64,000 bases of DNA from Promethearchaeia archaeon (GCA_029856155.1 JAHQWL010000075.1:1-64000); one strand, 5' to 3'; shown: positions 1-49,359, counted from the first letter of the stretch. Program-made: numbers and translations. Notes: generated by a model not told the origin, from the sequence alone.

Positions 1-545
<545 letters not shown>

Positions 546-32374: not shown

Positions 32375-33601
32375 ATGTTTAAATCAAAAAGACATGAATC
32401 AAAATCATATTTGAATTTAAATTATATTACATTTATATTCATCTATTTGGTTTCTTCATCTATTTTTGTTTTTCTTAATAATTATTTCCCTATTCTTTTC
32501 TTTGATGTCTTTAATGTTAATCGATTCTTGCTTGCATTAATGCAGTTTCTTGCTTATTCTATTTTGTTATTACGTCCAGCTTTTGCAGCTATAACAGACA
32601 AATATAAAATCAAGGGGTATCAACGGAAATATTATATTATTTTATCTGGGTATTTTTTAGGTTTAATTTATATCCTGATGGGGCTAAATATTAATAATAT
32701 TTTAATATATGGTGTTTTCTTATTTTTGATTTATATGTTAAGTACAATGTTAGATGTCTCTACCAAATCATTAGTTATTGATATCTCTCCAACTAATGAA
32801 ATTAAGAAAAAATATCTTTTCTTTATATGCGTTGGTGAAGCTCTAGGAAAATTCTTTCCCTTTCTACTATTTTTTCTTCTAATCAATAATATATATTCAA
32901 TAGCTTCTTGGGAAACTTTGATTATCTGTAGTTTTCTTTTGTTAATACCCTTGTTAAGTATATTGCCATTCATTACTGAAAGAAGTCAAACTAATATTCA
33001 AGTCGTTCAAAATCCTGAAGATTTTAGAAATTCTGAAGATTATTGTTTAGATTTACCAAAAAATGCTAAAAAAATATTCGTATTACTCTGTATATTTGTA
33101 TTTTTTGCATTTAGTGATGTTATTTTCATATATCCATTTTACCCTTTTATATTAAATAAATTTGGACTTAAGAATTTTAACCTTTTTAATTTTTTTTTAA
33201 TTTTTTACTTCCTTATAAGCATAACAAGTAGCGCAATCGGAAGTTTTCTTATAAAAAGAACAAAACCTAAAAAAATTATATTATTATTAATCCCAATTAT
33301 AGGTCTTATTTATTTCTTGATAACAATTGTCCCTTTTACTATTTTTGTAATTTTATATTTTTTAGTATGTTCATTAGGAACAATTACTAACTTGAATATT
33401 TCAGTTTATATAATGAAATTTAAAAATGGAAGTAAATCGGTTTACTTTCACATTATAGCATCGTTTAGAAATCTTTCGACATTCATCTTTCTTCCGTTAG
33501 GAACTTTATTATCAGGATTCATCGCTACAGAATATCTAATCATCATTGGGGCTTTTTTACTGAATATATCACTCATCCCTTTAATATTTATAACGCTTTA
33601 A
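32375..33601 (+). CDS. Major facilitator superfamily transporter (BT1/AmpG-like)
   Basis: About 12 TM; RPAFAAITDKYKIKGYQRKYY loop and DVSTKSLVID. Confidence 0.8.
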   Translation: MFKSKRHESKSYLNLNYITFIFIYLVSSSIFVFLNNYFPILFFDVFNVNRFLLALMQFLAYSILLLRPAFAAITDKYKIKGYQRKYYIILSGYFLGLIYILMGLNINNILIYGVFLFLIYMLSTMLDVSTKSLVIDISPTNEIKKKYLFFICVGEALGKFFPFLLFFLLINNIYSIASWETLIICSFLLLIPLLSILPFITERSQTNIQVVQNPEDFRNSEDYCLDLPKNAKKIFVLLCIFVFFAFSDVIFIYPFYPFILNKFGLKNFNLFNFFLIFYFLISITSSAIGSFLIKRTKPKKIILLLIPIIGLIYFLITIVPFTIFVILYFLVCSLGTITNLNISVYIMKFKNGSKSVYFHIIASFRNLSTFIFLPLGTLLSGFIATEYLIIIGAFLLNISLIPLIFITL

Positions 33602-33665
33602 TACCAAAATCAAGTTAAATATCAATGATATCTGTAGAATATCCAATAAAGAAAAGAAAAAATAG

Positions 33666-33686
33666 AAGAATCTTAAAAAGATTCTT
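33666..33686 (-). terminator. Perfect 9-bp hairpin followed by a T-rich run on the minus strand
   Basis: AAGAATCTT-N3-AAGATTCTT begins 3 nt after the micro-ORF stop. It could also terminate the convergent MFS gene. Confidence 0.5.
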
Positions 33687-33688
33687 AT

Positions 33689-33718
33689 CTAGCCTCCTCC
33701 TTCTCCAGTAGATGGCAT
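33689..33718 (-). CDS. Candidate micro-ORF MPSTGEGGG (9 aa), divergent from giant protein 1
   Basis: GC-rich island in an AT-rich spacer; TTTATAAA at 33740-33747 lies 21 nt upstream of the ATG; hairpin downstream; shares G-[E/D]-GGG with ORF 48964-49077. Confidence 0.45.
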   Translation of the reverse strand: MPSTGEGGG

Positions 33719-33835
33719 ACCTTTATTTCTAAATGCAATTTTATAAAGTAAACGAAAAAAAAATAATGCAAATAAAGATTATATAAAATTATAAAATATC
33801 TTAATAATAGTGTAAAAAAAACTGTATTATCTAAT

Positions 33836-36800
33836 ATGCTTGGACTTTTTAATTATAAAACTTTAGAGGAGTTATCCATAGGAAAGGGTTTGAGTCGAAT
33901 ACAAAATGTATTTAACACTTTTATTCATGAATTAGAGGATAATCTTAAGATACAACCCATTTACCCAAATATTTTAATAAAAATTATTGACAAAGAAAGT
34001 TTACCAATAGGAAAAAACATATCTATTCTTGATTTTGGGGTTAATAGAATAATTAAAAATACTAAATTAATTATAGAAGTTCCCAAAAATAAATTTTTAC
34101 CATTCATATTGTTTAGAGAAGCATGTTATTCCTTCCTTCCAAATGGTATAAGTCAACTCGTTAAAATTTGTATAAATCAAATTGTAGAAAACAATCTCAT
34201 CGGAGTATCGACTTCTAAAGAATGGAAAAAGTTTATAAGAGATTCCCTAGTAAACAGGGATTTCATTTACTCTCAATTTGATAAATTAAAAAAGTTTTTT
34301 AAAATTGAAGCAGAAGAGCCGTTTGAGAGTTCTACTCAGTTTTTTTTTAAGGAAATGAGAGAAAACATCGAATTGAGCAAAAATAATAACCTCAATAGGT
34401 TCTATGATATAATTTTTGAAAACTATGCTTATAAAACATCAAGATCTATATTTAACTCAGATATTATTAAAACACTGAGGATCCTAATTCAAATTTTCTA
34501 CGAGACTAAAACATATCTAAATTTAACAGATTATCAAACCAAATTTAAAGAGTTTAAAGAAAAAAAGAATTTAGAATTAGAGATAAGTTTGAGAAAATTT
34601 ACAGAAAATATGCAATGGATTAATAAGTGTTCTTCCATTTCGCCTTCATATGAAATCTCCTTTGATAGTATTGACCTTCATCTAATTATAGGTATCATAA
34701 AATTCAATCCCCTTTTAGAAAGAATAAAAATCAAGACTGTTATGGAACAATGGCTATTTTATCATTCTCCAAAATTATGTGAAAATAGTTTTACAACTGA
34801 ACTCTTTTTATTTTTTATTGTTCCCAGACTATATTTAAAAGATCTGTTAAATTATTTTGATAGCTTAAAAGATTCTGGATTTGTTCTTTACAATAAGTTT
34901 TATCAAGTTTCAAGTAAAACATCGCTAATAAACTTAAACTATTTTATGAACGTCTCTAACGTAATTAAGATAATAGAACCATCAAGTATTAAGTATAGGA
35001 GTAATTATGAAATTGAAACTGTCACTGAATATCCCCCTATCCCCCATCAATCCCCCTTGTCCCTATTTGATTTTACCCTTTTAGATCGTATAAAATATGT
35101 TTCAGTCACGGGTTTAACTTTTGATAAAAGAATAGAAACATTAAATGCAATAAAAGATGATATCAAAAATGAGTTACGAAAACAGAAAACATTTAATAGC
35201 CAGTTTAAGGACAATTTAAGTAAACTTAATAAATATAAACACCAATTTTTGCAGTTATTAGAAGAGAATGAGAAACAAGGATTTTTATACTTTTATTCTC
35301 AACTAAACAATATTCTAAATTACATTGATCTAATTGATGGTGTTTTAAATGAGCATTCAGAGATATTAAATATATATCAGCTCAAGACTTTCATAGATGA
35401 AAAAGCAACCTTTCAAATCATCGATGACCAATTAATTTTACAAAATGAAAATATTAATAAAATAGTATTTCATCATTTTCTTCCTCTTTATTTTCAATCT
35501 AAAAGCTCATTTAGAGAAGAAGTAGAAAAATACCAAAATTACTATGACATCTTAAATACCTGTAAAAATCTTAAAATTTTAGATCTGAGGAAAATAAAGA
35601 AAATTGTTAGTGAATCTAAGTTAGCTGATAAAATTTATGAAACAAGAGAAAAAATATACAAGGAATTATTTAAGACTGTAAGTTCATATAAAATTACAAA
35701 TGAGAAAATTGAATCTACTATCAGAACATTTTTAAATCATGATCCTCCGGTGTTGAATCCACTTCTAATAAATACAATTTTCACAAGTACATTTGCGAAA
35801 TATTATCCTGAATTAATACTAAAATATACACCTGAAGTTTATAATCAACTTCAAAAATTGAAACCATATTTTCCAAGAATTTTTATATATAAAATGATAG
35901 AGCTTAAAACAAACAAAAATTTCATTAATATTTCAATCTATTTTCTGAATATCAAAGAAAAAAAACTATTCTTATCGGTCTTATATTCTTATTTTAATGA
36001 CTATATAATTACAATTAAACGTTTTTTTTGGAGAGGTTTTGTAAGAATCCCTGAACTATTGGCAAGAGATTTTTACGATTTTAAATCTAAGCAATTCTTC
36101 TATTCAGAAGATATTTTCAGCCAACTTCAAAAATTTTCTGAAAAAATTCTTGGTGAAAAATTGGTATATCCTGATTATTCAATGATAAAAAATATAAACG
36201 AATTATTCTGGACCAGAAAGCAAAATATGGATAGTTTGGTAAATGTTGTAAAAGAAAGAATCTCACGTCAAAAAATAGACTTCAACTCAAAAGAATTAAA
36301 GGATTTATCAGATTTTACAAAAAATATCGAAACCTTTATATTAAACAGAACTAAATTTATAGATCTAAAAATCAAACAATTCTTCAATACATATATAAAA
36401 TCAATAAATTTTCTTCCAGCATTTCAAAAATTTGGCTTTTCACAGTACTATTTATATTTTCGGCCATTTTTTTATAAATCTCCGACTTTCGAAATTGATT
36501 TCAGAATTTTATTTGCAAATTCCTTCCAAAAAATTAAATATCCAGCTGTTATTGAACAAAATCCAGCAATCTATGGCAAGTATATATTTCCATTAAGAAC
36601 TCCTAATAAATCTTATTTGAACTGGCTTGTAAAATCAAAAAAGATTGTTTCTGAGTATTGTCTTTTTTATAACAAGAAATTTTATGAGATTGTTCATTTT
36701 AATCGCAATTTAACAAATGAAAATTGGAGTTATTCATCACTTAGGTTTAAAACTTACATGCAAGATGTATTATTCAATCCCTACTACGAACCAAAGATTT

Positions 36801-37462
36801 CAGGTATTAGAGAATTCGATATTTGTGAAATTTCCGAAACCGAGATCTATGGATATTATACAAAGGAATTCGAAGATTTATCTAATATTTATAATACTCA
36901 ATCTATTGATATTAAATCATTCTTAGGAACAAAACAATATTCCAAGATTAACACAATTATTGAACTCATCAAGAAGAAATTAATTTTCCCTTATATATCA
37001 CTAAAAAATTTAGATTTTCAAGATAAAGTATCAATTATTTTGCCTGATACTAAACAAGAGTTTAATGAAAAGATAATGAAGGTATTTAGTTTTTTTAATA
37101 TGTGTCGAATATATGAAATTGAGGGAGAATTTTTTATATATGGTTTTGAGGAGGAAAAAACTTTTGAAAATGGATTATTAATTGAAATCTGGTTTCCAAA
37201 ATGTGAATTAGATGAATTTTTTAATGTATTTGATTTAATATTTCAATATTTCGAAATTAAACATTATTTAATCTTGACAGACTTAATTAATGGGAAGACC
37301 TTATTAAAGTCCATTTATGGAAACTTAAATTTTTTAAAAGATTATAATCCCTTATTGAACCTAAAATGGAATGATAAAGATAAGATATGGATGAATCATA
37401 AGCTTTTTAATGAAAAGTTCGAACCAATTTACCCAGATTTGATTAAAAAGGAAAATGAATAA
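33836..37462 (+). CDS. Giant (1208 aa) protein of unknown function, paralogue 1; putative degenerate zincin-like N-terminus plus repeated Lrp/AsnC-like HTH-ferredoxin modules
   Basis: Collinear similarity to 45023-48688 (FNPLLE, DFYDF, LPAFQxFG, PNxSYLNWL, IYEIEGE, YLILTDL, WMNHKLF). Lrp-like segments SLFDFTLLDRI and KKLIFPYISLKNLDF. Confidence 0.75.
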   Translation: MLGLFNYKTLEELSIGKGLSRIQNVFNTFIHELEDNLKIQPIYPNILIKIIDKESLPIGKNISILDFGVNRIIKNTKLIIEVPKNKFLPFILFREACYSFLPNGISQLVKICINQIVENNLIGVSTSKEWKKFIRDSLVNRDFIYSQFDKLKKFFKIEAEEPFESSTQFFFKEMRENIELSKNNNLNRFYDIIFENYAYKTSRSIFNSDIIKTLRILIQIFYETKTYLNLTDYQTKFKEFKEKKNLELEISLRKFTENMQWINKCSSISPSYEISFDSIDLHLIIGIIKFNPLLERIKIKTVMEQWLFYHSPKLCENSFTTELFLFFIVPRLYLKDLLNYFDSLKDSGFVLYNKFYQVSSKTSLINLNYFMNVSNVIKIIEPSSIKYRSNYEIETVTEYPPIPHQSPLSLFDFTLLDRIKYVSVTGLTFDKRIETLNAIKDDIKNELRKQKTFNSQFKDNLSKLNKYKHQFLQLLEENEKQGFLYFYSQLNNILNYIDLIDGVLNEHSEILNIYQLKTFIDEKATFQIIDDQLILQNENINKIVFHHFLPLYFQSKSSFREEVEKYQNYYDILNTCKNLKILDLRKIKKIVSESKLADKIYETREKIYKELFKTVSSYKITNEKIESTIRTFLNHDPPVLNPLLINTIFTSTFAKYYPELILKYTPEVYNQLQKLKPYFPRIFIYKMIELKTNKNFINISIYFLNIKEKKLFLSVLYSYFNDYIITIKRFFWRGFVRIPELLARDFYDFKSKQFFYSEDIFSQLQKFSEKILGEKLVYPDYSMIKNINELFWTRKQNMDSLVNVVKERISRQKIDFNSKELKDLSDFTKNIETFILNRTKFIDLKIKQFFNTYIKSINFLPAFQKFGFSQYYLYFRPFFYKSPTFEIDFRILFANSFQKIKYPAVIEQNPAIYGKYIFPLRTPNKSYLNWLVKSKKIVSEYCLFYNKKFYEIVHFNRNLTNENWSYSSLRFKTYMQDVLFNPYYEPKISGIREFDICEISETEIYGYYTKEFEDLSNIYNTQSIDIKSFLGTKQYSKINTIIELIKKKLIFPYISLKNLDFQDKVSIILPDTKQEFNEKIMKVFSFFNMCRIYEIEGEFFIYGFEEEKTFENGLLIEIWFPKCELDEFFNVFDLIFQYFEIKHYLILTDLINGKTLLKSIYGNLNFLKDYNPLLNLKWNDKDKIWMNHKLFNEKFEPIYPDLIKKENE

Positions 37463-37592
37463 GCTTAGAACTTTTAGATTAAACTAAAAGCTAATGTTAA
37501 TTCTTAATTAAAAAGTGTTAAATAATTATAATAAAATTTAAACGTTATTTTGGATATTTTAATAAGTATAAGACATTAAATAGGTAGAAAAA

Positions 37593-37667
37593 GGACCTAT
37601 AGCCTAGCCTGGATAGGGCGTCGGACTTCTAATCCGAAAGTCGCAGGTTCGAATCCTGCTAGGTCCG
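37593..37667 (+). tRNA. tRNA-Arg(TCT)
   Basis: Acceptor GGACCTA/TAGGTCC, anticodon arm TCGGA-CTTCTAA-TCCGA, T arm GCAGG-TTCGAAT-CCTGC. Confidence 0.96.
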
Positions 37668-37670
37668 CTC

Positions 37671-38828
37671 TTAATTTGAAGCTTTAATTTTTAAGTCAGC
37701 AACAATCAATTCAGATTTGGGCGAATAATGCTTAACGATTTTAGAATTAATGATAGACTCAATTTCCCAATAATGACGAGTTATTTCTTCCTCAAGGTTC
37801 TTTAAAGATTTATCAATAGGATTTGGTTTTTCAGAGAATTGATAAAAGTGTAAAATCCCACCAGATTCTTTCATTAAATAGCAAGCTACATCAATAAATT
37901 CGATTGAGCTTTCAGGTAAATTCATGATTATCCTATTTGCTTTATTCCTCAGAAGTTGGCCTAAATGGTTTTTAGGCTCAAGAAGTTCTTTAATATCTAT
38001 ATTTTTTGGAAAAATTTCTCCCTTTAGCTTATTTAAATAAATATTTTCTTTCAGATATTCATAAGCATTGGAGTTAATATCAAACGCATAAATTTTGACA
38101 TTTTTATTTTTCGCAATTTGAATAGAGAAAGTTCCAATGCCAGCAAACATATCAACGATTATCTCGTCTTCTTGTATCCTAGTTGAAGCAATCCTTCGTC
38201 GTTCAAAGACTAATCTTGGTGAGAAGTATGTATTCTTAACATCAAGCTTAAAAATACAATCATTTTCCCTATGAATTGTCTCAGATTTTTCTTCACCGTA
38301 CAAAACATCTAATTCTCGTAAACGATATTTTCCTTTGATTTGACTCTTTTTCTCATAAACGGTTTTTACATTTTTATTTACGTTTGATATCCCCTTAGCA
38401 ACCATCTGCTTATAAACGCTGAAATCCTTATCATCAATATTAATAAATTTATCAAACTCGATTATAGCTATACTTCCAACAATATCATATGATTTTGGAA
38501 TTACTTCTGAATACCTATCCGGTATTTTACCTTCTAATGCTTCCTGAAGTGTTCTATATTTAAAATTTTCTTTGGGTATTCCTTCTTTGGAAATTAATTC
38601 AAAATTAATTTTTTTATCTACTGATGAAGTTACTCTATCGATTAGAGTTTGGTCTTTAACTATTGGAAATAGTATATTTTCATTCTCATATAAAATTTTA
38701 AATCTTTGATTAATAAGTTGGGTATTTTTTAACTTATTTTTTAAAAAATTAATGAATGCTTGTCCATCTTTCGCTTTAAATTTAATGTATAAGATCTCAG
38801 TTTGGTTATAATTTCCCATTTTTCTCAT
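37671..38828 (-). CDS. trm5: Trm5-family tRNA m1G37 methyltransferase
   Basis: SYDIVGSIAI, YFSPRL, VDMFAGIGTF, IIMNLP. Confidence 0.9.
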   Translation of the reverse strand: MRKMGNYNQTEILYIKFKAKDGQAFINFLKNKLKNTQLINQRFKILYENENILFPIVKDQTLIDRVTSSVDKKINFELISKEGIPKENFKYRTLQEALEGKIPDRYSEVIPKSYDIVGSIAIIEFDKFINIDDKDFSVYKQMVAKGISNVNKNVKTVYEKKSQIKGKYRLRELDVLYGEEKSETIHRENDCIFKLDVKNTYFSPRLVFERRRIASTRIQEDEIIVDMFAGIGTFSIQIAKNKNVKIYAFDINSNAYEYLKENIYLNKLKGEIFPKNIDIKELLEPKNHLGQLLRNKANRIIMNLPESSIEFIDVACYLMKESGGILHFYQFSEKPNPIDKSLKNLEEEITRHYWEIESIINSKIVKHYSPKSELIVADLKIKASN

Positions 38829-39243
38829 TTATTTCAAATATGATTGAAAATTTTTTTCCAGAAATTTTTAGATTTTCGATTAGTTCACGGTTTATTTCAA
38901 TCGATGATTTAGTACAATTTATTAGAACCGTTCTATCACAAATAAAATCGCTTTTGCGAAAAACCATATCTTTTTTATCCACTAATCTTAATTCTTTATT
39001 TCCAAAACCATAAAAGCAATCTTGAAGATTTTCCAACCTTAAAATGATTTTTATTTTACTTCCATCTTTTATTTCCTTTTTTAAACAGGGATTTAAATCA
39101 CAACAAGCTTTTGAAGCATTTATTCCTATGATACAATTTCCTTTCTTTGTTAAACTCTTTTCTTTTGTAATTTCAATAGTTGTACTATGCGTACAGAGAA
39201 TATTTTCGTGTCCATAGGCAAAAATCTTTTCTAAAATCGCCAT
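38806..39243 (-). CDS. DUF371 family protein
   Basis: GHENILCTHSTTIEITKE...GNCIIGI...VFRKSDFICDRT. Confidence 0.88.
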   Translation of the reverse strand: MAILEKIFAYGHENILCTHSTTIEITKEKSLTKKGNCIIGINASKACCDLNPCLKKEIKDGSKIKIILRLENLQDCFYGFGNKELRLVDKKDMVFRKSDFICDRTVLINCTKSSIEINRELIENLKISGKKFSIIFEINEKNGKL

Positions 39244-39248
39244 ATACT

Positions 39249-40895
39249 TTATTCATCCCTAAAGAATTGTAATAAATCGTTTAAATTAGTAAATTTAGAA
39301 TAGTTTGAATGAAATTTAGAATTTAAAAGAGGTTCTAATCCATGAATTGGATTAACAGGGTTAAATTTTTCAACTTCATTAAATTGATTTAAATAGCTCT
39401 CGGGAATTAATACTCCACATTTATGATACTTATTATAATTTTGATTAATATAAGCGCTTGACTTCTTAACTGAGTTCTTATAAAGTTCATCATCCTCTTC
39501 GGAGACCGTTATAGATTCAAATTGTCCCATCGGATATGTACTTATTAATTCAAGTGGAATTATTCCAAAATAGAAAGAATTAAACACAATATGTATGTCT
39601 TTAACAGCGATTATTGTATTATCATTTATCTCTTTAAGCCAATTTTGGATTGTTGGAGAATTTTCTCCTCTAGCATCTAATTCTGGTAATATTATTAAAA
39701 ACTTTACATCTTCTGGAACCCGATAGTTGATATTAATCCTCTTCTCATATCTGGTAATCAAAGGTCTGTAAATATCTTCAGTAGAAACAAACATTCTCCC
39801 ATGCTTCTTATACACTTTTTCATAGAGTTCAAACACAGGAGATTTTTTCTTTAAGATCCGTACTGCTTTGATTAAATTAGGGTGTGCTCTTACACGTTGA
39901 TCAACAAGTTCCCACAAATTCCCCTCTCTTATTGCTTGTCTAATTGTTTTTAGCTCAGAAAAAGAAAGATACAAGTTATGTTCTGCTAAGAGTTTAATTC
40001 GCAAATTATCTTCGAATTTCCTCAGTTCATTTGGTTTAAATTTTGTACAAATTGGGCAATGGCATGGAAATTCTTCTAAATCCTCAAGATTTTTTGTACC
40101 TGTGGATAAGGTAAAATACCTATTCTCTTTAGCATATAAGATATATGCTGCAGAATCCATTAAATCGCAACCACATGCGACAGCTAAGGAAAAAAACTGT
40201 GGTAGACCTAACCCAAACATGTGTAATGGTTTATTTGAGTTTATATTTTTTTTCACATTCAACAAAATTTGAATAGCTCTATCAAATCTGTAATCAAGAA
40301 AAGATTTTACCAATCCCCCAATCGCATAAACATCAAAATCCAGTTTATTCATTTCATTAATACATTTTGTCAAAAGATCATCATATTTACCTCCATGAAT
40401 CGGCCCAAACCATGCACAATTTTCATTGAATCGTCTTTTAACGTTATCTCTTGCTCTATCGATTGTTGCATCAACTTTTTTTTTTGCTATTTCATATGCA
40501 TCATCAGGTTGTACAGGAAGATCAAGGATCACAGGAAAATCTGATTCAATCTTTTCTTGAAATCCTTCAATTTCTTCAGCTTCAATCTTCATATCAGACT
40601 TGTTATACATATACTGTTGAAATGCTCCGCTATCGGTTGCGATAAGACCATCAAAATCAAGAAATTGGTGAATCTTTTTCTTCATGAGGCTTTCTTTTAT
40701 AGTTTCATTTTGAAAAAGGATATAAGCATTCGTAAAAACAGCTTGAGCACCAAAGCTTTTTAAATCAGAAGGTTGAATAACATTTTTAAAAGGATGTACT
40801 ACAGGAAAAAGATTAGGGGTAATCATCTGCTTATTGTTGACTTCTAATTTTCCTATTCTGCCTAAAGCATCTACATCTAGAATTTCATACTTCAT
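39249..40895 (-). CDS. tgtA: Archaeosine tRNA-guanine(15) transglycosylase (no C-terminal PUA domain evident)
   Basis: GRIGKL, TDSGAFQ, HMFGLG, DLMDSAAY, CHCPIC, HNL, LWELVDQRVRAHP. Confidence 0.93.
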   Translation of the reverse strand: MKYEILDVDALGRIGKLEVNNKQMITPNLFPVVHPFKNVIQPSDLKSFGAQAVFTNAYILFQNETIKESLMKKKIHQFLDFDGLIATDSGAFQQYMYNKSDMKIEAEEIEGFQEKIESDFPVILDLPVQPDDAYEIAKKKVDATIDRARDNVKRRFNENCAWFGPIHGGKYDDLLTKCINEMNKLDFDVYAIGGLVKSFLDYRFDRAIQILLNVKKNINSNKPLHMFGLGLPQFFSLAVACGCDLMDSAAYILYAKENRYFTLSTGTKNLEDLEEFPCHCPICTKFKPNELRKFEDNLRIKLLAEHNLYLSFSELKTIRQAIREGNLWELVDQRVRAHPNLIKAVRILKKKSPVFELYEKVYKKHGRMFVSTEDIYRPLITRYEKRININYRVPEDVKFLIILPELDARGENSPTIQNWLKEINDNTIIAVKDIHIVFNSFYFGIIPLELISTYPMGQFESITVSEEDDELYKNSVKKSSAYINQNYNKYHKCGVLIPESYLNQFNEVEKFNPVNPIHGLEPLLNSKFHSNYSKFTNLNDLLQFFRDE

Positions 40896-40922
40896 TTGGT
40901 TTCCTTTGAGAATTTACGTTTA

Positions 40923-41516
40923 TTAATCAAAAAATTCATTTAAACGATCCTCTTTAAATAACTTTTCAAGCCAATCAACTTTTCCAATCTTAAAATTTTC
41001 TCCGTTATTATTTTCAAATATAATTTCAACGATAATTTGCGCTACAGCTTCAATATTAGTATTTGTCGTGTCGATTTCATATATGGGTGCTTTTATCCGC
41101 TTTTGAATAAAATAATTGGCACAATTACCTAGAATTTCTGCTTGAATGTTTTCATTAATTTTTTCTCTATCGAAATTTTTTATTTCTAATCTTCTGAATA
41201 ATTCATCCGGATCACATCTTAAAATAAATACATAATCAATAAATCTTTCGGGAATAATATCTGAGAAATGGCTTTCTATTATCAGGTATGGTGGATTCTC
41301 TTGTTTAATATCTTCAATCTTATCTAAAATATAAGGTAGAAATATTTCAAAATCTACGATATATGTTTTTCTTTCTTCATCATATTCAAATGAAAATTCA
41401 TCCGAAATTGCTAATTCATTTAAAGACATTATTTTAGCTTTAATTAAATTAGAAATTTCTTTTGCTACCGAAGTTTTTCCGCAGCCAGGTGTTCCGGAGA
41501 TAACGATATTTTTCAT
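40923..41516 (-). CDS. AK6/Fap7-type adenylate kinase
   Basis: ISGTPGCGKT, IIESH, LRCDP...L...KINENIQAEI. Confidence 0.9.
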   Translation of the reverse strand: MKNIVISGTPGCGKTSVAKEISNLIKAKIMSLNELAISDEFSFEYDEERKTYIVDFEIFLPYILDKIEDIKQENPPYLIIESHFSDIIPERFIDYVFILRCDPDELFRRLEIKNFDREKINENIQAEILGNCANYFIQKRIKAPIYEIDTTNTNIEAVAQIIVEIIFENNNGENFKIGKVDWLEKLFKEDRLNEFFD

Positions 41517-41874
41517 TTCTAAGTATATAATAGAGATCGATAATTAAAAAAGTGAATGAACATAATTGAAGTTAATTCATAGTAAGAGTTTTCAGGAAGA
41601 ATTTTTCTTGATAATATCAAAGAATCCTCTAAGATGTAAAAATACATAATAAAAGAGTGATTTAAATTATGATGATAGTATCATTCAATACAATCCATTG
41701 GGTGCTTAATAACATAATTACAATACAAACTTGGTTTCTTATTAAAGAATATTATTACTCATGAGGAGAAAGTACTATTTGATGAATCGATGCGATTACA
41801 GTTAAGTAAGCGCAGAATGGACAAAAATAAAGATCTTGAATTTGAAATTCTAACTTACCTTTTTTTACTATTTA

Positions 41875-42324
41875 CTAATGTTCAAGGAAATCTCTGAAAC
41901 TATGATATACACAGACAATATATTCACATTTGGGGCATTCGTACCAATCTTTATATCTCTCATTTGATTTTATTAGTAATGGGATTTGACAAGAGGGACA
42001 TTTTATAGGTTGTTCTTTATGATTTATTATATGCTTTTTATAATCCTCTTCTAGCTCACATTCAAGATCTTCTTTTAATATATATGAATCTGTTTTTGCT
42101 ATAAAATCTAATATTTCTTGGTTCGGATACCATTCATTATGATGTCTGTATTTTCTAAATCTTTTATGTAAATCATATTCTCCTCTACTATTGCCTTCAA
42201 TAATCTTTAGTATTCTCAATTTGTCTGCATTGAAGCTCTTTAAAATACTACATCTATCTTTTGGATTAGTAGAAAAACCAATCTTTATCAATCCTGTTTT
42301 TTTAGCTTGAATAAAATACAACAT
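41875..42324 (-). CDS. GIY-YIG (T5orf172/MUG113-like) nuclease with a C-terminal Zn ribbon
   Basis: LYFIQ...IKIGFSTNPKDR...E..LHKRF...EWY; CPSC...CPKC. Confidence 0.85.
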   Translation of the reverse strand: MLYFIQAKKTGLIKIGFSTNPKDRCSILKSFNADKLRILKIIEGNSRGEYDLHKRFRKYRHHNEWYPNQEILDFIAKTDSYILKEDLECELEEDYKKHIINHKEQPIKCPSCQIPLLIKSNERYKDWYECPKCEYIVCVYHSFRDFLEH

Positions 42325-42674
42325 TATATAATTCCTCTTAAGTGATAATGCTTTTCTTAATCATCGATTAATATGAGTTAAGAAAGAATTTTTGGTCATT
42401 CACCTTCTCTAATTAATTATAAAATAAAGATTTTCTTTAATTTAAATGAAAGAGTCCCGAAATTTTATGATTAATAAATAAATCGATGCAATAAAAAGCA
42501 ACTACTTCGCCAAATAAATAAAAATCTTTAACGTAGACTAAGCATACTTAAATTTAGCAAGTTATTCCATCCATATTTTTAATCGGAGTGACTAATTTAA
42601 CTCATCTCATTGAAAGATTGAAATTTAGTTTTTAATTAAAATTTATTGTTTAAAATAAGGAAATAATAAAATAA

Positions 42675-42869
42675 TTGAGAAAAAACTGCAAGAACCTCAT
42701 GAATTATATATTATTTAAGAATAAATATCCTATGTTTGATATTGAATATAAAATTAGACAGAGCTATTATAATGCTCTCGAAAATGCAAATCTAAAGGAA
42801 GATGATATGATTTTTATTGGTTGGTTTTGTAAAAGATATATTAAAGCAAATGAACATTACTTGAAATAA
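42675..42869 (+). pseudogene. C-terminal remnant of a Fic-domain protein
   Basis: LMNYILFKNKYPMFDI...RQSYYNALENA. KTAR (the tail of the GNGRTAR motif) is readable in a shifted frame just upstream. The HPFxDGNGR core is absent. Confidence 0.65.
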
Positions 42870-42938
42870 AAGTTTTATACCTTTTTGAGTGCCCGCTGTA
42901 AAAAAAATAATCGGAGTATCACATGCCTAACTAATAAG

Positions 42939-43042
42939 TGGGAAAGGGGGGCTTCGAACCCCCGACCTCACGGTTATCAGCCGTGCGCTATACCAGGCTA
43001 AGCCACTGAAGAGATACTTCTAACACAAGAATCCACTCTCCC
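42939..43042 (-). tRNA. tRNA-Ile(GAT) with an apparent 30-nt intron near position 7/8 (~43006-43035)
   Basis: Anticodon arm CACGG-CTGATAA-CCGTG and T arm GGGGG-TTCGAAG-CCCCC. The 3' acceptor strand CTTTCCC pairs only with GGGAGAG, which sits 30 nt further upstream than expected. Confidence 0.88.
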
Positions 43043-43199
43043 AAGCTGCTTTCCCTTTAAAGATTAATTATAAAAGTTTTAATTCTTTATTATTAAAAGT
43101 TGTAATGGTTATTATCAATGTACAATTTGTTGAATAATTTATATAATATATAGCTAAAAAATTTTTTGACAATTTGAAAAAGATAAATTTCCCTTAAAT

Positions 43200-44648
43200 T
43201 TACAAAAAGTCGTCTAAAGAACCCTTGATTCGATACGATTCACCATCTCCTAAAGGATCAAACCTAACATAGGGATCATATTTCATTTGAACATCATAAA
43301 GGCCAAATACATCTTTAACCTGTTCATTGAATTGTAGAACAATTTCCTGTATTACTCGTTTTTGATTTTTCAATAACATTTTTCGATTAAAACCGTCCTT
43401 TTCTTTCAAGCGTATTAGAATTATCTTTTTTCTATAAGAAACCTCATTTTTAATAGAGTCTCTCGCGTTTATTGAGGCAAAATCCTCCATACTATCGCAA
43501 AAAGGATTTTTTTTAATATTTATCTCATCATGATAAAAACCATCATATTCTCCAGCTATCGCAAATTTATAATTGATTCCGTCATTCCCTATAACATAAA
43601 CATTAGGACAAAAATGATCATATCTTAATTGGCCAACAAAAACAGGAATAGGATATTTAACTCCATTTATTCGTATTGTTCGGATAATGACCTTCTCTCT
43701 ATCAATTCCACAAGCCTGTTCTAACCTTACTTGAACTTTGAATTCTTTTTTAAAAAACTGCTCTAAATAAGTCCTCATCATTCTTTCACAGATCAACTCA
43801 TTACAATATGGGCACCAATTATAATCATATATTATTTTTCTCACTTGAATCGAGAATTCATGTCCTACTCCGCATGATATTTTTATATACCTATCAGTAG
43901 GATATTCAGTCATTAATTCATAAACAGTTCTCGAAGTCAGAATACGTGCTTTTCCATGACTTCGATACTGAATGAAGTCTTTAATATTCTCATATTCAAT
44001 TCTTTTTCGTATAGCACACGTTTTGCCCCATACTTCATCGTAAATCGCGCGTGATTCACCAGGATTATAGCATTTCACTTGAACAAGATATTCTATTACC
44101 CATGGTTTAAATGTATTTTTACTGATTATCCCATGCAAATCACCTTTTAGTAAATTATTCCTTGTTGGAATCAAAGATATGCTCTTAGGATATAATCTAA
44201 TATATTTTTCAATTATTTCATAAAACCTAATTTTTTCTTTTTTTTTAGCTGAATTTTCTGGCCAAAATAATTTTATAACATCTTCTACTGCTTCTTTCCC
44301 ATATAATATTTCTAACCAAGTTGAAATGTAAGCTCTAAGTGTTGGTCTTGAAATTCCTAAGCGATCTGAAATCGTTCGTAATGATCCAAATCTGTCATCA
44401 TATATAATGTCTTTAAAACAATTTATTGGGTCATTTCCTAATAAATCTATTACATAATTTCTAATTTTTTGTTTATCTATTTCACTGAGATTTGAACAAC
44501 TAGGTTTTAAACCTAAATTTATGTTGTTAGTACGAAAAAAATTCGAATTATTCGGGTCGTAATAATTAAAATGGCGACCTTTGGAGTTATTTAATCCACA
44601 ATAATTTTCACCATTAATATGATTCCTTTTGTTATTTTCTTTTTTCAT
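43200..44648 (-). CDS. Putative Vsr/DUF559-like endonuclease with HTH, Zn ribbon and a PIP-box-like C-terminus
   Basis: HTH SLRTISDRLGISRPTLR; CGVGHEF...WCPYC; LRYDHF...AGEYDGFYH...RDSIK...ILIRL; terminal KGSLDDFL. Confidence 0.7.
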   Translation of the reverse strand: MKKENNKRNHINGENYCGLNNSKGRHFNYYDPNNSNFFRTNNINLGLKPSCSNLSEIDKQKIRNYVIDLLGNDPINCFKDIIYDDRFGSLRTISDRLGISRPTLRAYISTWLEILYGKEAVEDVIKLFWPENSAKKKEKIRFYEIIEKYIRLYPKSISLIPTRNNLLKGDLHGIISKNTFKPWVIEYLVQVKCYNPGESRAIYDEVWGKTCAIRKRIEYENIKDFIQYRSHGKARILTSRTVYELMTEYPTDRYIKISCGVGHEFSIQVRKIIYDYNWCPYCNELICERMMRTYLEQFFKKEFKVQVRLEQACGIDREKVIIRTIRINGVKYPIPVFVGQLRYDHFCPNVYVIGNDGINYKFAIAGEYDGFYHDEINIKKNPFCDSMEDFASINARDSIKNEVSYRKKIILIRLKEKDGFNRKMLLKNQKRVIQEIVLQFNEQVKDVFGLYDVQMKYDPYVRFDPLGDGESYRIKGSLDDFL

Positions 44649-45022
44649 TTAATCCCATACATCTTATAATTCTTCTGTTACTCTATTTTCAATAAAAATT
44701 TTATCAAACAATGAAATAAAAATCTATTTTATGTTTTAGAGTTATTATTTTATACATTTTTTATTAGAAATTACCACTTTAAAATCCGTGATATTTATCT
44801 TTTTCTTTCCTCTTTAGATATATAATCATTAGAGTTTATAAATTTATATATTTTCTATTCAAGCGATTTTATCTTTATAAATAAACTAAAAATCTTTAAT
44901 TTAATTTTGCCTTTATAAATCTTTCGTAAAACTAATTTATGTTAGCATACCCATAAATACTATAAAAAAATCAAATTAATGAAACCAAAAAAGTAAATAA
45001 ACTAAGGTATTATGAAAAATAT

Positions 45023-48000
45023 CTAGGATTCTAAAATTCGTTCATTTTCTACTTTTTCTTTGAAAATAAGTTCGGGATACAAAAATTCAAAAGTTTTACT
45101 AAACAATTTATGGTTCATCCACATTTCATTTTTTGTGTTCCATATTAAATTTTTTAAGGGATTATATTTTTCAAGAAAATTTTTATTTCCGTAGACCGAT
45201 TTGATAATAGAGTCACCATTAACCAAATCAGTTAATATCAAATATTTTTCAATCCTTAAGTACTGAAAAATATATTCAAAAATTCTTAAAAATTCAGCAA
45301 TTTCGCAATCTGGAAGATATAATTTGATCATTAGTCCACTATATATCTTTTTCTTCTTACTAAAGCCGTGAATATAATACTCTCCTTCAATTTCGTAAAT
45401 AAAACCTAAATTGAAATACTGAAATATGTATTTTAGTATATCAATTGTATCTTTTTTTAGATTTAGCAAAATAATATGGATAATTTCATTCAATCCCAAA
45501 TTTTTTGGAGTAATAATGGGAAAGATAATTTTCTTCTTGATTAAAGTTTGAATCTCATCGAAGATAGATTGGTTAATAATATTATAATTTTTCTTAATAT
45601 CAACAGAATGCCAATTATATATATGCAATAAAGCTTTAAAATAGGGAGAATTAGGTTTATAATAATCTGAAATTATTAAATCACCAGTATCAAAATGTTT
45701 CACGTCTGAAGTTTGAACTCTATAATTTGGATTGAAAAGAATATTTTGTATATAAGTATTAAAATTATTAGAATCTAAGTACCATCCATTTGAGCTTAAA
45801 TTATAGTTGAAATGGAAAATTTGAGAAACAGATTTAATAGTAAATAGGCAATATTCTCTTATTTTGTTTTTACTTCTCAACCAGTTAAGGTATGAAGTAT
45901 TGGGTTTATTGTAAGGAAATAGATATTTAATAAATATGGAATTAGAACTATCAATTGATGCCATATGCTTAATTTTTTGAAAAGTATTTGTAAATAATAT
46001 TTTGAAATCTACATCTTCTACATCAAAAGGAGTAATATATAAAAAGTATTGTCCTAATCCAAAATTTTGGAAAGCAGGAAGTAGTTTTATTGATTTTATA
46101 TATTGTCTAAAGAAATTTTCTTTTTTTATTATTTGAAATTCTCCTTTGTTCATAAAATGTTTTTCAAGATTTAAGTGAAAATGTATTAATTTTTGAATAT
46201 CTATTGGATTAAAACTGATACATTCAGATCTAATTCTTTTGTTGATTTTCTTAATAAGATTTGCCAGATTTTCTTTTATAGACCAATGTTTAATCGTACT
46301 AACTGATTTTTCTTTAAATTGGTTTAACTCTTCGCCACAAATATTTTTAGTGTAAAGAAAAAATTGCTCAAATAGATCTTTGGTGAAGAAAAACTCTTTC
46401 TTATTGAAATCATAAAAATCTTTTCTTGAAAAAGTATGTAAAAAACCGTCCCATGAATATCGTTTAAAAGATATAATATTTTCTTTAAAAATCTTAGATA
46501 TTACTGAAATTAATGTTATCTTTTCGTTATTATTCAAATATGGAATAAAAAGTTGTAAAAAAATAAATTCTTGGTTACTGAATAAATCTATTGTTTCATA
46601 GAAATAACTTTTAGGAAAATAATTTTTTATTTTATTTATTGTAGCTCTTACTTCAGGGGAATTTTTTAGTATTATTTGAGGAAAATAGCTTGCGACTGAA
46701 TTTGTCCATATAGTAGCAATTAAGTAGGGTTTAATTATCTTAGGATCTTTATTGATAAATTCATCTATCTTGAGATTAATTGTCTTATTTGATACATTAT
46801 AAGTTTTATTTTTTTTTTTTAATTCTCTTAATCGTGCTTTTTTTAATTTAGTAATCTTATTTGATAAGTTTGGATCATTGATTATTTTTTTAATTGATTT
46901 AATACTAAAAATTTTTAAATTAGAACATAACTTTAAAAATTCGTAAAAAATTCGGAGTTTTTCAACATCTTTAGCATATTTGGCTCTAGAATTCAAATAA
47001 TTCAGGAAGAGATTTTTAAAAGTAAAGGAATTTGAATCTATATGGTCAAATATATTACTTTCTTCAATTGATTGTATTATATTCTCTTTTTCAACAAATT
47101 CTTTAAATTGAATAAAATTATTCATTCTGTTTGTATCTTTCGATTCTTTTTCAATTATTTTGAAATAATTTACCCATTTTTTTAATTCATCTTTAATATA
47201 GAAAAATCCGAAATTTTGATTTCTTTCTAAAAAAATTACGAAATCCTTTCGGAGTTCAGGAGAATCAATTAGTATTTTCAAACTATTCTCTAATTCTTCA
47301 ATTAAACTATTTTCACCTATGAAAAAATTAGAATGATCAGATTTTATTATGTTTGAAATTTCCCTTTTTCTTGAAAAGTTTATTCCAACAAAAGAAAAAA
47401 ATCTTATTCTCTCTAAAATTAAAAAATCCAGAAGTGTTAGATTAGGTTTATTAAAGTCTTTATTATAATTTTGTATGAATTCGATTTCAAAGTCTTTTGA
47501 GTAGTTTTTATTATTAAGTTCTATTATCTGCCCATTTTTATAAGATTCTCTAAAATAATTTAAATTCAACGAAAAAACATACTTCTTTGCTAAAGAACAA
47601 TGTTTCTTAATTATGTATCCATATTTCTCCATTTCTTTCAACATATAAATCAAATCTTTAATATAAATTCTTGGAATAACAAAATATGCCGATAATTCTA
47701 CTGCAAAATTAGTTATCGAAAGTTTTGGCATAATTAGAAATGGCATTTGGTTAGTAATCTTGTCAATTTTAGCTTTTTCTAGTAGAGGATTGAATTGCAA
47801 ATGGCATGTAATAATAGCTATATTAATTGCTTTCCAATCAAAATAGTATGATGGGGTTATATAGCTATATTTATTAATCCATCGAAGGTTTTTTCTAAAA
47901 CTCCGTGAACTCAAATCAGTTTGGATGATTCCCTGTTTTTTAAAATTATTAAAGTAATTATAAAATCCTTCCAAAGTATCACAGTTTTTTATTTTGTAGA

Positions 48001-48688
48001 AAATTTTAGTTAAAATTCTAAGAGTTTCTGTAATCTCATTACTCTGTAAATTCTTTGAAGATTTGAACATAAAATCTTCATACATTTTATTAAAGTAAAA
48101 TTGTAGATTCTCATCGAAATCTAGGTTTGAATTTTGCCTGATGTATTCAAAAAAGAATTGTTTTGGACTTTCGGAATCTTTTGTTTCTTTTAATTCAAGG
48201 AATTTGTCAAAACGGAATTTATCTGATTGATTCGATAGAAAATTGTAATTCAAAAATCTTTCTCTTATGAAAAGTCCCCATTCTGTAACCGAGGTGAATT
48301 CTTTTAAATCAATTTCTACAAATTGGTTAATAGCAAAATCAATGAGATTTTTTTCTTTTAGATTATTCGGGATAAAAGTAAGATAAGCACTTTGAAGTAA
48401 TAGAAAGGGGAAGAACTTTCTATAATTTTTAAAAAGTTTAATATGATATATATCATCTCTTATAGATCTATTCACTCCGTAACTATGTAATCTTTTATCT
48501 GAATCTCTGTTCTCATTTATTTCATCAACAACATGTATTTTTACTTTTTTGTTGATTACATCTAAATTTAAATAAGCTTTTAACTCATTCATTAGATAAA
48601 TGAAAATCTGATTTATCTTAATAGGATCATCCATATTAGATAATTTTTTCAACTTATCTAAATTAGGAGAGTTAACCAAATTCATCAA
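45023..48688 (-). CDS. Giant (1221 aa) protein of unknown function, paralogue 2
   Basis: Collinear with 33836-37462 over its whole length, most strongly in the C-terminal third. Confidence 0.75.
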   Translation of the reverse strand: MMNLVNSPNLDKLKKLSNMDDPIKINQIFIYLMNELKAYLNLDVINKKVKIHVVDEINENRDSDKRLHSYGVNRSIRDDIYHIKLFKNYRKFFPFLLLQSAYLTFIPNNLKEKNLIDFAINQFVEIDLKEFTSVTEWGLFIRERFLNYNFLSNQSDKFRFDKFLELKETKDSESPKQFFFEYIRQNSNLDFDENLQFYFNKMYEDFMFKSSKNLQSNEITETLRILTKIFYKIKNCDTLEGFYNYFNNFKKQGIIQTDLSSRSFRKNLRWINKYSYITPSYYFDWKAINIAIITCHLQFNPLLEKAKIDKITNQMPFLIMPKLSITNFAVELSAYFVIPRIYIKDLIYMLKEMEKYGYIIKKHCSLAKKYVFSLNLNYFRESYKNGQIIELNNKNYSKDFEIEFIQNYNKDFNKPNLTLLDFLILERIRFFSFVGINFSRKREISNIIKSDHSNFFIGENSLIEELENSLKILIDSPELRKDFVIFLERNQNFGFFYIKDELKKWVNYFKIIEKESKDTNRMNNFIQFKEFVEKENIIQSIEESNIFDHIDSNSFTFKNLFLNYLNSRAKYAKDVEKLRIFYEFLKLCSNLKIFSIKSIKKIINDPNLSNKITKLKKARLRELKKKNKTYNVSNKTINLKIDEFINKDPKIIKPYLIATIWTNSVASYFPQIILKNSPEVRATINKIKNYFPKSYFYETIDLFSNQEFIFLQLFIPYLNNNEKITLISVISKIFKENIISFKRYSWDGFLHTFSRKDFYDFNKKEFFFTKDLFEQFFLYTKNICGEELNQFKEKSVSTIKHWSIKENLANLIKKINKRIRSECISFNPIDIQKLIHFHLNLEKHFMNKGEFQIIKKENFFRQYIKSIKLLPAFQNFGLGQYFLYITPFDVEDVDFKILFTNTFQKIKHMASIDSSNSIFIKYLFPYNKPNTSYLNWLRSKNKIREYCLFTIKSVSQIFHFNYNLSSNGWYLDSNNFNTYIQNILFNPNYRVQTSDVKHFDTGDLIISDYYKPNSPYFKALLHIYNWHSVDIKKNYNIINQSIFDEIQTLIKKKIIFPIITPKNLGLNEIIHIILLNLKKDTIDILKYIFQYFNLGFIYEIEGEYYIHGFSKKKKIYSGLMIKLYLPDCEIAEFLRIFEYIFQYLRIEKYLILTDLVNGDSIIKSVYGNKNFLEKYNPLKNLIWNTKNEMWMNHKLFSKTFEFLYPELIFKEKVENERILES

Positions 48689-48963
48689 TTTAATATATAA
48701 TTTTTGTCTTGAATCTAATATGCTGCAATTTACTTTTTAAAATTTTTCAAAGGAACTCCTTTTGTATCAAATATAATATTCCTTTATAAAGAAAAAATTG
48801 AAATAAAAATAATTCTACATAAGGATTTTATAAATATTTTTGATTCACTATAAGTGCAATTTAACCTAATTTTTATCGAAAATTAGAAAATTCTTTCTGT
48901 TTAAATAGAAGAATATAGAAGAAATGACATCAATTCATTTCATTTAATAAAAAGGTAATTAAT

Positions 48964-49077
48964 TTGAAATTATTTAAAGTATATAGAGTTCTTTTATTTG
49001 TATTAATCGGCATTGCTTCCTTTTTGCCTATGATTAGCATTGTATTAGGTTGGAAAGGAGATGGTGGAGGACCATAA
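48964..49077 (+). CDS. Uncalled 37-aa signal-peptide-like precursor MKLFKVYRVLLFVLIGIASFLPMISIVLGWKGDGGGP, divergent from giant protein 2
   Basis: TTG start 7 nt after AAAGGT; basic n-region, hydrophobic core and a Gly-rich tail encoded by GC-rich codons. Confidence 0.6.
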   Translation: MKLFKVYRVLLFVLIGIASFLPMISIVLGWKGDGGGP

Positions 49078-49359
49078 TACAAAAAGCCCATTAATCAAAT
49101 AAAGAATATTTCAAATTTTTTTTACATTTATTTCTCTGATACCTGGATTTTTTATATTAAATTTATGAAATTGAAGCAATTTTTATTAAATTCTGGACTA
49201 ATTTAAAATAGATTTAGATATTTAGATTTAGAATTAACACTATTTAATGGTTGTTAGGAATAAATGTAATAAATAGTATTTAAAAAATTTTTTGACCAAA
49301 AAAATAATAAAATATGCTTATTTTTAATTAATATTATACAGTAGATGTGTTGAGATAAA

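Follow-up and report, generated by a model that had tools for sequence, protein, structure and literature searches.

The window analysed here is the first 64 kb of contig C75 of a Promethearchaeia archaeon (GCA_029856155.1, JAHQWL010000075.1:1-64000; 64,000 nucleotides of a 4.1-Mb assembly with 30% G+C). It contains two genes for giant proteins of about 1200 residues, each divergent from a tiny gene. Comparison with relatives showed that these loci represent what, judged from DNA and protein sequence, is a lineage-specific module of three parts: the giant, a tiny coding gene and, for one of two classes, a transporter of the major facilitator superfamily (MFS). In one class the tiny gene is an open reading frame (ORF) of 8-12 codons, which we call a micro-ORF. 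In the other it is a longer precursor-type gene, exemplified in the window by a 37-aa ORF. The pairing of the giant with a separately transcribed tiny gene is, by the same comparison, conserved and widespread in one taxonomic family. All genomes compared were metagenome-derived, and the flanks covered at each locus were 0.9-1.5 kb long.

Giant proteins and two classes of divergent tiny gene

Giant 1 (P0001; 33836-37462, + strand; 1208 aa) and giant 2 (P0002; 45023-48688, - strand; 1221 aa counted from a TTG) are collinear over their full length and 36% identical. A preliminary description of the window had already called them paralogues. It had also located both giants, the micro-ORF with a TATA-like box 21 nt upstream and a hairpin plus T-run downstream, and the 37-aa ORF, and all of these features were recovered at the same positions. 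In giant 2 the TTG at 48688 is followed by an ATG as the next codon (48683-48688). Because the 90% identical orthologue in genome G058 begins (MNLVNS) at the corresponding ATG, the true start is probably ATG 48685. A third paralogue, 74% identical to giant 2, lies on contig C34 (G000:C34:26826-30401), bringing the giants in this genome to three. Orthologues of giant 1 in relatives are 61-65% identical, and a conserved block, AAATTATAAAAA ... AAGATTATT.AAAAAATAG, is found upstream of the orthologous giants. In the window, an AT-rich, TATA-like tract at 33779-33798 (+), 38-56 nt before the ATG, is a candidate TATA region for giant gene 1.

The giant was present in 72 of 81 sampled genomes of the family and in none of 19 genomes sampled from other families of the same order. 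A profile of its N-terminal 432 positions retrieved only 199 proteins among 1.84 billion representatives. The 150 of these that were listed are about 1200 aa long, or are shorter pieces with a collinear match, consistent with a single family. All database relatives are annotated as 'hypothetical', under names that read 'Promethearchaeota' or 'Lokiarchaeota' archaeon. A search of the giant against PADLOC gave no match.

Automated patterns found a small ORF on the strand divergent from the giant at 44 of 81 unique loci and on the same strand at 2; about 10 further loci with a small ORF were recognised by eye. On a maximum-likelihood tree of 43 giants, for which some labels were likewise assigned by eye, the type of small gene changes 9 times, compared with a mean of 22.9 for shuffled labels. 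This comparison shows that the type of small gene follows the phylogeny of the giant, a pattern of co-diversification.

The micro-ORF of the window, ATGCCATCTACTGGAGAAGGAGGAGGCTAG (33689-33718, -), has 9 codons, encodes MPSTGEGGG and is divergent from giant 1. A TATA-like box, TTTATAAA (33740-33747, -), lies 21 nt before its ATG within the conserved motif TTTTTTCGTTTACTTTATAAA, and this spacing indicates a leaderless mRNA. Downstream, a 9-bp hairpin (AAGAATCTT/AAGATTCTT, 33666-33686) is followed by a T-rich run, together marking the end of the putative transcription unit (33651-33686, -). AAAGGT had been noted in front of both tiny ORFs. For the 37-aa ORF this holds in that AAGGT is found 7 nt upstream of its start; at the micro-ORF, AAAGGT directly abuts the ATG and so cannot serve as a Shine-Dalgarno (SD) sequence there.

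Using the strict pattern MP-x(1-3)-G-[ED]-x(1-6)-stop, we found 4 complete ORFs in the whole genome; 3 lie out of frame within genes, and MPSTGEGGG is the only intergenic match. At giant loci the same pattern occurred 14 times on the divergent strand and never on the same strand, and in an independent set of 35 loci fetched later the counts were 5 and 0. This uniqueness between genes, together with the strand bias, led us to reject a chance origin of MPSTGEGGG. In the P0001 clade a micro-ORF is divergent from the giant in 15 of 15 tree rows. The unit in giant-1 orthologues consists of a promoter block, an SD leader or leaderless spacing, an ORF of 8-12 codons and a hairpin with T-run. The promoter block, TTTTTTCGTT.ACTTTAAAAA, is conserved on the strand divergent from the giant, and relatives with a longer leader (~45 nt) carry the SD sequence GGGGAGGAGGT 6-12 nt before the ATG.

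The consensus of the micro-ORF family is MP-x1-3-G-[ED]-x-x-[P/G], and most of the encoded peptides end in x-x-P or G-G. Orthologues of giant 1 are accompanied by MPLTGEIGS, MPYSGEIGG, MPAAGEGGTAPL, (GTG)PLSGEPNA, MPHGTGDG, MPVGEAGN and MPYEEGDL, and deeper branches by MPHAGENGG, MPAQEGDG, MPFQGETQP, MPYQGEGQP, MPHGGEIVP and MPHAGETLP. A separate clade has M[NYI]F[QG]GET[VI]P, and a further clade MPATCDTTP, MPGNSGICP, MAPGCGNIIP and MPANCDTIPK. The idea that G-[E/D]-GGG is the defining motif shared by the tiny genes did not survive this comparison. The micro class reads MP..G[ED]..[P/G], and the precursor class has a Gly-rich tail ending in P. The codon comparison of GEGGG with GDGGG from which the motif was drawn was itself correct as read. 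For the 9-codon set, which was selected by regex, counts of codon variation are circular wherever the pattern constrains a position, and they carry no weight here.

Hairpin arms of the form AGAATC(C)/(G)GATTCT recur 3' of the micro-ORFs in relatives, with the stop codon 3-9 nt before the hairpin; only 3 hairpin and T-run sites of this type exist in the genome. The inverted-repeat arms TAGAATCC / GGATTCTA are kept while the loop varies from 4 to about 45 nt (L033, L100, L104 and L031), which favours an RNA stem over a protein-binding DNA site of fixed spacing. Tandem duplicates of micro-ORF units are common. Upstream of the giant at L075 (G130:C67), two divergent micro-ORFs are joined by a third copy, MPHGGEVMPEDL, with its own hairpin and T-run, in the giant's orientation; it would appear that the units can flip.

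The tiny gene beside giant 2 is the 37-aa ORF, MKLFKVYRVLLFVLIGIASFLPMISIVLGWKGDGGGP (48964-49077, +), which starts with TTG and encodes a putative precursor that resembles a signal peptide or a membrane anchor and has a Gly-rich tail with Pro at its end. Its TATA-like box, TTTAAATA (48900-48907, +), lies within a conserved block, TTCTTTCTGTTTAAATAGAA, and is kept in 5 of 5 aligned copies. The 3' untranslated stretch (49078-49127, +), ending in a T8 run (49116-49123), is conserved about as well as the ORF. Since the promoter block and the 3' stretch are conserved too, the 37-aa gene is, by alignment, a complete small transcription unit. We rejected the notion that the 9-codon ORF is a decayed 37-aa gene, since the one unit could not be aligned with the other and the micro-ORF belongs to a conserved family of its own.

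Homologues of the 37-aa ORF were found with E values of 1e-16 to 1e-24. Upstream of the C34 paralogue lie two tandem divergent 37-codon ORFs, ...LGWKGDGGGP and ...LGYNGSGGGP. A profile of the 37-aa ORFs matched 16 places at E < 1e-6 in about 10 of 135 genomes of the family, and most of these are placed divergently from a P0002-like giant, at a distance of 200-550 nt on its upstream side. Copies beside giants include those on the genome's own contigs C75 and C34 (two on the latter) and in G058, G025, G118, G116, G139 and G096. G118 has two such loci, one of them a tandem pair; the copies in G078, G140 and G065 have no giant within 1.5 kb. Four copies were looked up among 15 billion protein sequences, and none had been called. 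At locus L037 (G139:C15:28870-31980) an intact 37-aa-type gene with an ATG start stands beside a piece that aligns only to giant residues 1-61 and may be a decayed or rearranged copy.

Eight distinct copies of the 37-aa gene vary at 18, 14 and 28 sites at codon positions 1, 2 and 3. Most replacements are exchanges among I, V, L, M and F, one copy has ATG where the rest have TTG, and the GGGP codons vary synonymously. The antisense frames are interrupted by stops in 6 of the 8 copies. DNA contigs of four runs, which had no variants at the small ORFs among the matches listed, were uninformative.

The precursor class is wider than this family. A composition rule selected ORFs of 25-60 aa with a basic N-terminus, 12 or more hydrophobic residues out of 19 and 3 or more Gly among the last 9. 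Such ORFs were present on the divergent strand at 17 of 88 giant loci, or 16 of the 81 unique ones, and at none on the control strand. In these proteins a basic N-terminus is followed by a hydrophobic helix and then by a tail of 8-11 residues that is rich in Gly and ends in Pro (here ...VLG/WKGDGGGP), and several of them have this architecture without detectable sequence similarity to the 37-aa family. AxA-like sites precede the tail in ...SSALA/EFPGHAGGP, ...AVMA/DWAPAIGQGGP, ...SCFA/ETFPGSQGGP and ...SGLA/FGAGEGNP. The predicted tails vary (GDGGGP, GSGGGP, GQGGP, GEGNP, GGAP) and match the directly encoded micro-peptides in size and character; this likeness supports the idea that both classes may share a functional piece. 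A type I toxin was considered for the 37-aa protein for its size and hydrophobicity only, and the constant linkage to a giant gene is atypical of such loci.

Taken at face value, some of these features could also belong to non-coding RNAs or DNA-binding sites in which the ORFs are incidental. Among close copies the flanks are about as conserved as the ORF, the arms AGAATCC/GGATTCT are conserved in sequence across clades, and several micro-ORFs contain GGAGG-like tracts. We nevertheless regard this explanation as very improbable. The ATG, frame, length and stop of the micro-ORFs are maintained across in-frame one-codon indels, across the switch between SD and leaderless starts and across very different nucleotide sequences, and such frame retention is hard to reconcile with an RNA-only element. 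A strong, correctly spaced SD sequence or leaderless spacing is retained as well. In the 37-aa family, the third-position excess and the antisense stops argue for translation, two sequence-unrelated precursor groups have the same protein architecture, and no Rfam family matched at the small units. These data support the view that both types of tiny gene behave as coding sequence.

Predicted architecture of the giant

An AlphaFold2 model of the homologue P0011, obtained from a 40-sequence alignment, had a pLDDT of 83.7 and a pTM of 0.82 over the full length. The N-terminal 212 residues of P0002, folded alone, gave a pLDDT of 84.7; P0001 is a row of that alignment. From these models the giant is predicted to consist of a zincin-like domain that has lost its HExxH motif, followed by fused Lrp/AsnC-like units, each with a helix-turn-helix (HTH) and a RAM-type domain.

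Compared with 48,161 chains, the N-terminal domain of P0002 had zincin or zincin-like domains as nearly all of its top 50 matches, the best with Z 8.4 and a root mean square deviation (rmsd) of 4.7 over 172 of 212 residues. The matches include M1 aminopeptidases, thermolysin, LasB, selecase and the inactive M1-like domain of TAF2. In 27 aligned members of the giant family the HExxH position reads LLREAY(Y/C) or LLQSAY, and no His is conserved across the aligned family. The motif having been replaced and a conserved His being absent from the alignment, the modelled head is presumably a binding module and not catalytic.

Residues 206-769 of the P0011 model matched the fused double Lrp/AsnC unit of the siroheme decarboxylase NirDL (Z 13.7, rmsd 5.1, 299 of 309 residues aligned). 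Residues ~204-369 matched ST1022, PH0140, E. coli Lrp and AsnC (Z 6.0-6.6, rmsd ~5, 140-150 residues aligned). The predicted structure thus has the Lrp/AsnC layout of an N-terminal winged HTH followed by a RAM domain of beta-alpha-beta-beta-alpha-beta topology. A long coiled coil separates the Lrp/AsnC-like units, and further ferredoxin-like beta-alpha-beta-beta-alpha-beta domains were seen at about 851-945 and 1042-1140, in the C-terminal half, which was compared only as part of the whole model. A Foldseek search with the whole P0011 model gave no match at E 0.001 or below, with NirDL at the top at 1.1e-3; rows for RND pumps in the output were set aside because of their probabilities of 0.02-0.1.

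According to these models the giant combines Lrp/AsnC-like units within one chain in a new arrangement and carries an inactive zincin-like head. Such a combination of a peptidase-like head without its active site and Lrp/AsnC-like units would suit a ligand-sensing regulator. The Lrp-like part could be a DNA-binding regulator or an enzyme like NirDL. The preliminary description had likened the layout to Rgg/SHP and related RRNPP systems, but the giant is not a receptor of that type: neither the confident model nor Pfam revealed a TPR domain.

When residues 1-790 of P0002 were co-folded with the 37-aa protein in one job, the score was 0.55, compared with 0.00 for the best control; the runs had at least 21% of contacts in common and a partner pLDDT of at least 34. 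The mark that this score passes was reached by 58 of 80 solved complexes and by 2 of 110 mismatched pairs. Scores of 0.60 or less were obtained for only 7 of the passing solved complexes and for both passing mismatches. By the tool's own account, most passes at 0.60 or below are wrong, except where the guess was a likely one beforehand. Co-folding thus lends weak support to a contact between P0002 and the 37-aa protein.

The neighbouring transporter and a possible sensing circuit

Upstream of giant 1 and convergent with the micro-ORF lies an MFS_1-type transporter gene (32375-33601, +; Pfam MFS_1 E 7e-8, just under the gathering score). Its suggested association with the tiny gene held statistically across clades. 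Pfam MFS_1 proteins, all of one subfamily, are the upstream neighbours at 14 of 43 giant loci. Within the fetched flanks, the window's MFS subfamily adjoins 19 of 27 micro-peptide loci but none of the 16 precursor-type loci. The Fisher p for this contrast, 3e-6, overstates the significance because relatives do not count as independent; even so, the association is seen again in several clades and genera. In the commonest layout the giant is followed by the divergent micro-ORF, the hairpin and T-run, and then the MFS gene, co-oriented with the micro-ORF. In relatives a conserved TATA-like box, GAGTTTATAAA / AGTTTTTAAA, is found between the T-run and the MFS start, and for this reason the MFS gene seems to have its own promoter. 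This distribution is as expected if leaderless peptides need a dedicated exporter while precursors use Sec; it is equally the basis for an attenuator.

In such an attenuator the micro-ORF would be a regulatory leader or arrest peptide. A ribosome paused at the Pro/Gly-stop end of the micro-ORF would cover the 5' arm of the hairpin. Whether transcription stops at the T-run or continues into the MFS gene would depend on this pause, and the giant would be a transcription factor only. The order micro-ORF, hairpin plus T-run and co-oriented MFS gene is present at L009, L014, L017-L024, L030, L031, L033, L085, L100, L101 and L104, with the stop codon as close to the hairpin as described above, and a C-terminal Pro or Gly before the stop is a slow-termination context in bacteria and eukaryotes. 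We consider this mechanism distinctly unlikely, since a separate TATA-like box precedes the MFS gene in those same loci. In the window and its close relatives the micro-ORF unit persists, even in tandem duplicates, where the MFS gene is inverted or replaced. The 37-aa precursor class, which has no downstream MFS gene, would also be left unexplained.

The reading that we favour, possible but held at rather less than even confidence, is a sensing circuit made of an Lrp-type local regulator, a tiny peptide gene and, in the micro class, the MFS transporter, with the peptide as ligand. Lrp/AsnC regulators are typically divergent from their targets. The giant would be a single-chain local regulator of this type, and it would act on promoters that stand back to back: its own, that of the peptide gene and, at loci that have one, that of the MFS gene. 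More speculatively, the peptide would leave the cell through the MFS transporter, or through Sec when it bears a signal-like helix, and would then act back on the giant as a ligand, bound either by the inactive peptidase head or by a RAM-type pocket. The outcome would be an autoinducer-like circuit that has an analogy with Rgg/SHP or other RRNPP systems but no homology to them. The more specific proposal of ribosomally made archaeal peptide signalling, with 8-11-residue Gly/Glu/Pro peptides, release by MFS or Sec, a non-RRNPP receptor and multiple cognate pairs per genome, appears rather unlikely at present.

The same parts could also be arranged without a peptide ligand. The classical Lrp/AsnC regulator binds amino acids in its RAM domain and controls transporter genes that are its divergent neighbours; PMC8707732 offers an example of such a pair. 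The giant might then be an Lrp-type regulator, or an Lrp-like enzyme, that responds to a small metabolite, with the tiny genes and the MFS gene merely as local targets; the peptides would have a role of their own, for example as secreted effectors or as modulators of a membrane transporter, and would not feed back to the giant. The fold matches need no peptide ligand, and each of the three genes has a promoter-like box. This explanation, to which we give a minor share of our confidence, accounts neither for the close tracking of giant clades by small-gene type nor for a peptidase-like domain with a lost active site, and the weak co-folding pass leans slightly the other way.

Several observations weigh against the sensing circuit and the module from which it is built. 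The pairing, first suggested from two loci, is conserved and widespread in the family, but no small ORF was recognisable in distant giant clades (29-31% identity; L097, L111, L113 and L115-L117), and 37 of 81 loci were left unclassified by the automated patterns. The classification of small ORFs was partly post hoc, and part of the typing for the tree was assigned by eye with the data in view. In the window and its nearest relatives the MFS gene is inverted compared with the commoner layout. Searches of the giant against Pfam and NCBIfam (E up to 1) gave no match, and the 432-position profile, which covers the zincin-like head and the first Lrp-like unit, found nothing among PDB sequences at E up to 10. 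The top structural match of the Lrp-like part, NirDL, is an enzyme, so that DNA binding is not assured. The giant has neither a signal peptide nor a transmembrane segment, and an exported peptide would require re-import. Finally, the co-folding pass may stem from the hydrophobic helix alone.

Some further observations concern the surroundings of these genes. A contig from one public sediment run passes from 33077 to 33649 through 39 other letters, which suggests a strain variant whose MFS gene, beside the micro-ORF terminator, lacks its 3' half. In four close relatives without the MFS gene (L064:1-705, L065:3-761, L067:2-865 and L069:3-1040) a B12-binding protein of the radical SAM type lies beyond the micro-ORF units. 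The precursor-type locus L029 (5597-6589) also has a B12-binding neighbour and L037 (145-1155) a radical SAM neighbour. These neighbours could be due to chance in radical-SAM-rich genomes or could hint at peptide modification.

The other neighbours in the window are housekeeping genes (a TYW2-like methyltransferase, DUF371, archaeosine TGT, a kinase-like AAA protein, ribosomal L15e and SDR) and supply no pathway context. At 1-544 (-) an archaeal 16S rRNA gene, represented by the 5' 529 positions of the model, runs off the start of the window, which is the contig start. Between both giant loci, a 149-aa protein (41875-42324, -) combines a GIY-YIG-like MUG113/T5orf172 domain with an IBR-type zinc-finger match, and may be of mobile-element origin. 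It adjoins a partial tRNA found by Rfam at 42945-43007 (-; model positions 6-65, 44.7 bits; no ARAGORN call), which may be a split or intron-containing tRNA.

Comparison with known systems

Literature searches returned no description of the module of giant, tiny gene and MFS transporter, and we know of no peptide signalling of this kind in archaea. Asgard archaea are the archaeal group closest to eukaryotes, and genetics are not available in the lineage. Conserved genes of 8-12 codons are almost never annotated, and the micro-ORFs would rank among the shortest conserved coding genes known to us. What the comparison brings together are tiny conserved genes and the large protein to which they are linked, which is specific to the family and has an architecture not known before. 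Should the peptides prove to be ligands of the giant, archaea would have peptide signalling built from parts unrelated to the bacterial systems, with several orthogonal peptide/giant pairs per genome open to study. Should they be no more than regulated products, or arrest peptides, there would still be a new Lrp architecture in a single chain that includes an inactive peptidase domain.

Bacterial attenuators resemble the module in that a short ORF, a close hairpin with T-run and then an MFS gene occur in this order in many of its relatives. They differ in the promoter-like box before the MFS gene, in the MFS gene of the window lying on the other strand and in the units that also occur alone and in tandem. 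With zincin metallopeptidases (M1 aminopeptidases, thermolysin and selecase, and the inactive M1-like TAF2) the giant shares, by prediction, the catalytic-domain fold in its N-terminal ~200 residues, whereas L-R-E-A-Y or L-Q-S-A-Y takes the place of HExxH. NirDL and AhbA-AhbB, the siroheme decarboxylases, offer a fused pair of Lrp/AsnC-like units, but at ~10% sequence identity, and the giant adds the head and the C-terminal half. No genes of haem d1 or alternative haem biosynthesis were seen among the giant neighbours examined.

The Lrp/AsnC (feast/famine) regulators are alike in the predicted unit of HTH and RAM and in the divergent neighbouring genes that include a transporter. Unlike them, the giant fuses at least 2 such units in a 1200-aa chain with a coiled coil, ferredoxin-like domains and a peptidase-like head, and the Pfam and NCBIfam models for Lrp/AsnC (AsnC_trans_reg, HTH_AsnC-type) do not match it.

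The Rgg/SHP and other RRNPP systems of Bacillota and their phages (Rap/Phr, PlcR/PapR, AimR/AimP) differ in the receptor, since the giant has a zincin-like domain and Lrp/AsnC-like units and no TPR domain. They also differ in that some of the giant-linked peptides are directly encoded as 8-12-mers with no propeptide, in the archaeal host and in the Opp-type importer, of which none was identified here. The layout is nevertheless similar: a regulator-like cytoplasmic protein stands beside a very short peptide gene, the peptide genes can be tandem, and one class resembles a signal peptide with a short C-terminal tail. A second class without a signal peptide adjoins a transporter, much as SHP depends on PptAB for its export (PMC7564271).

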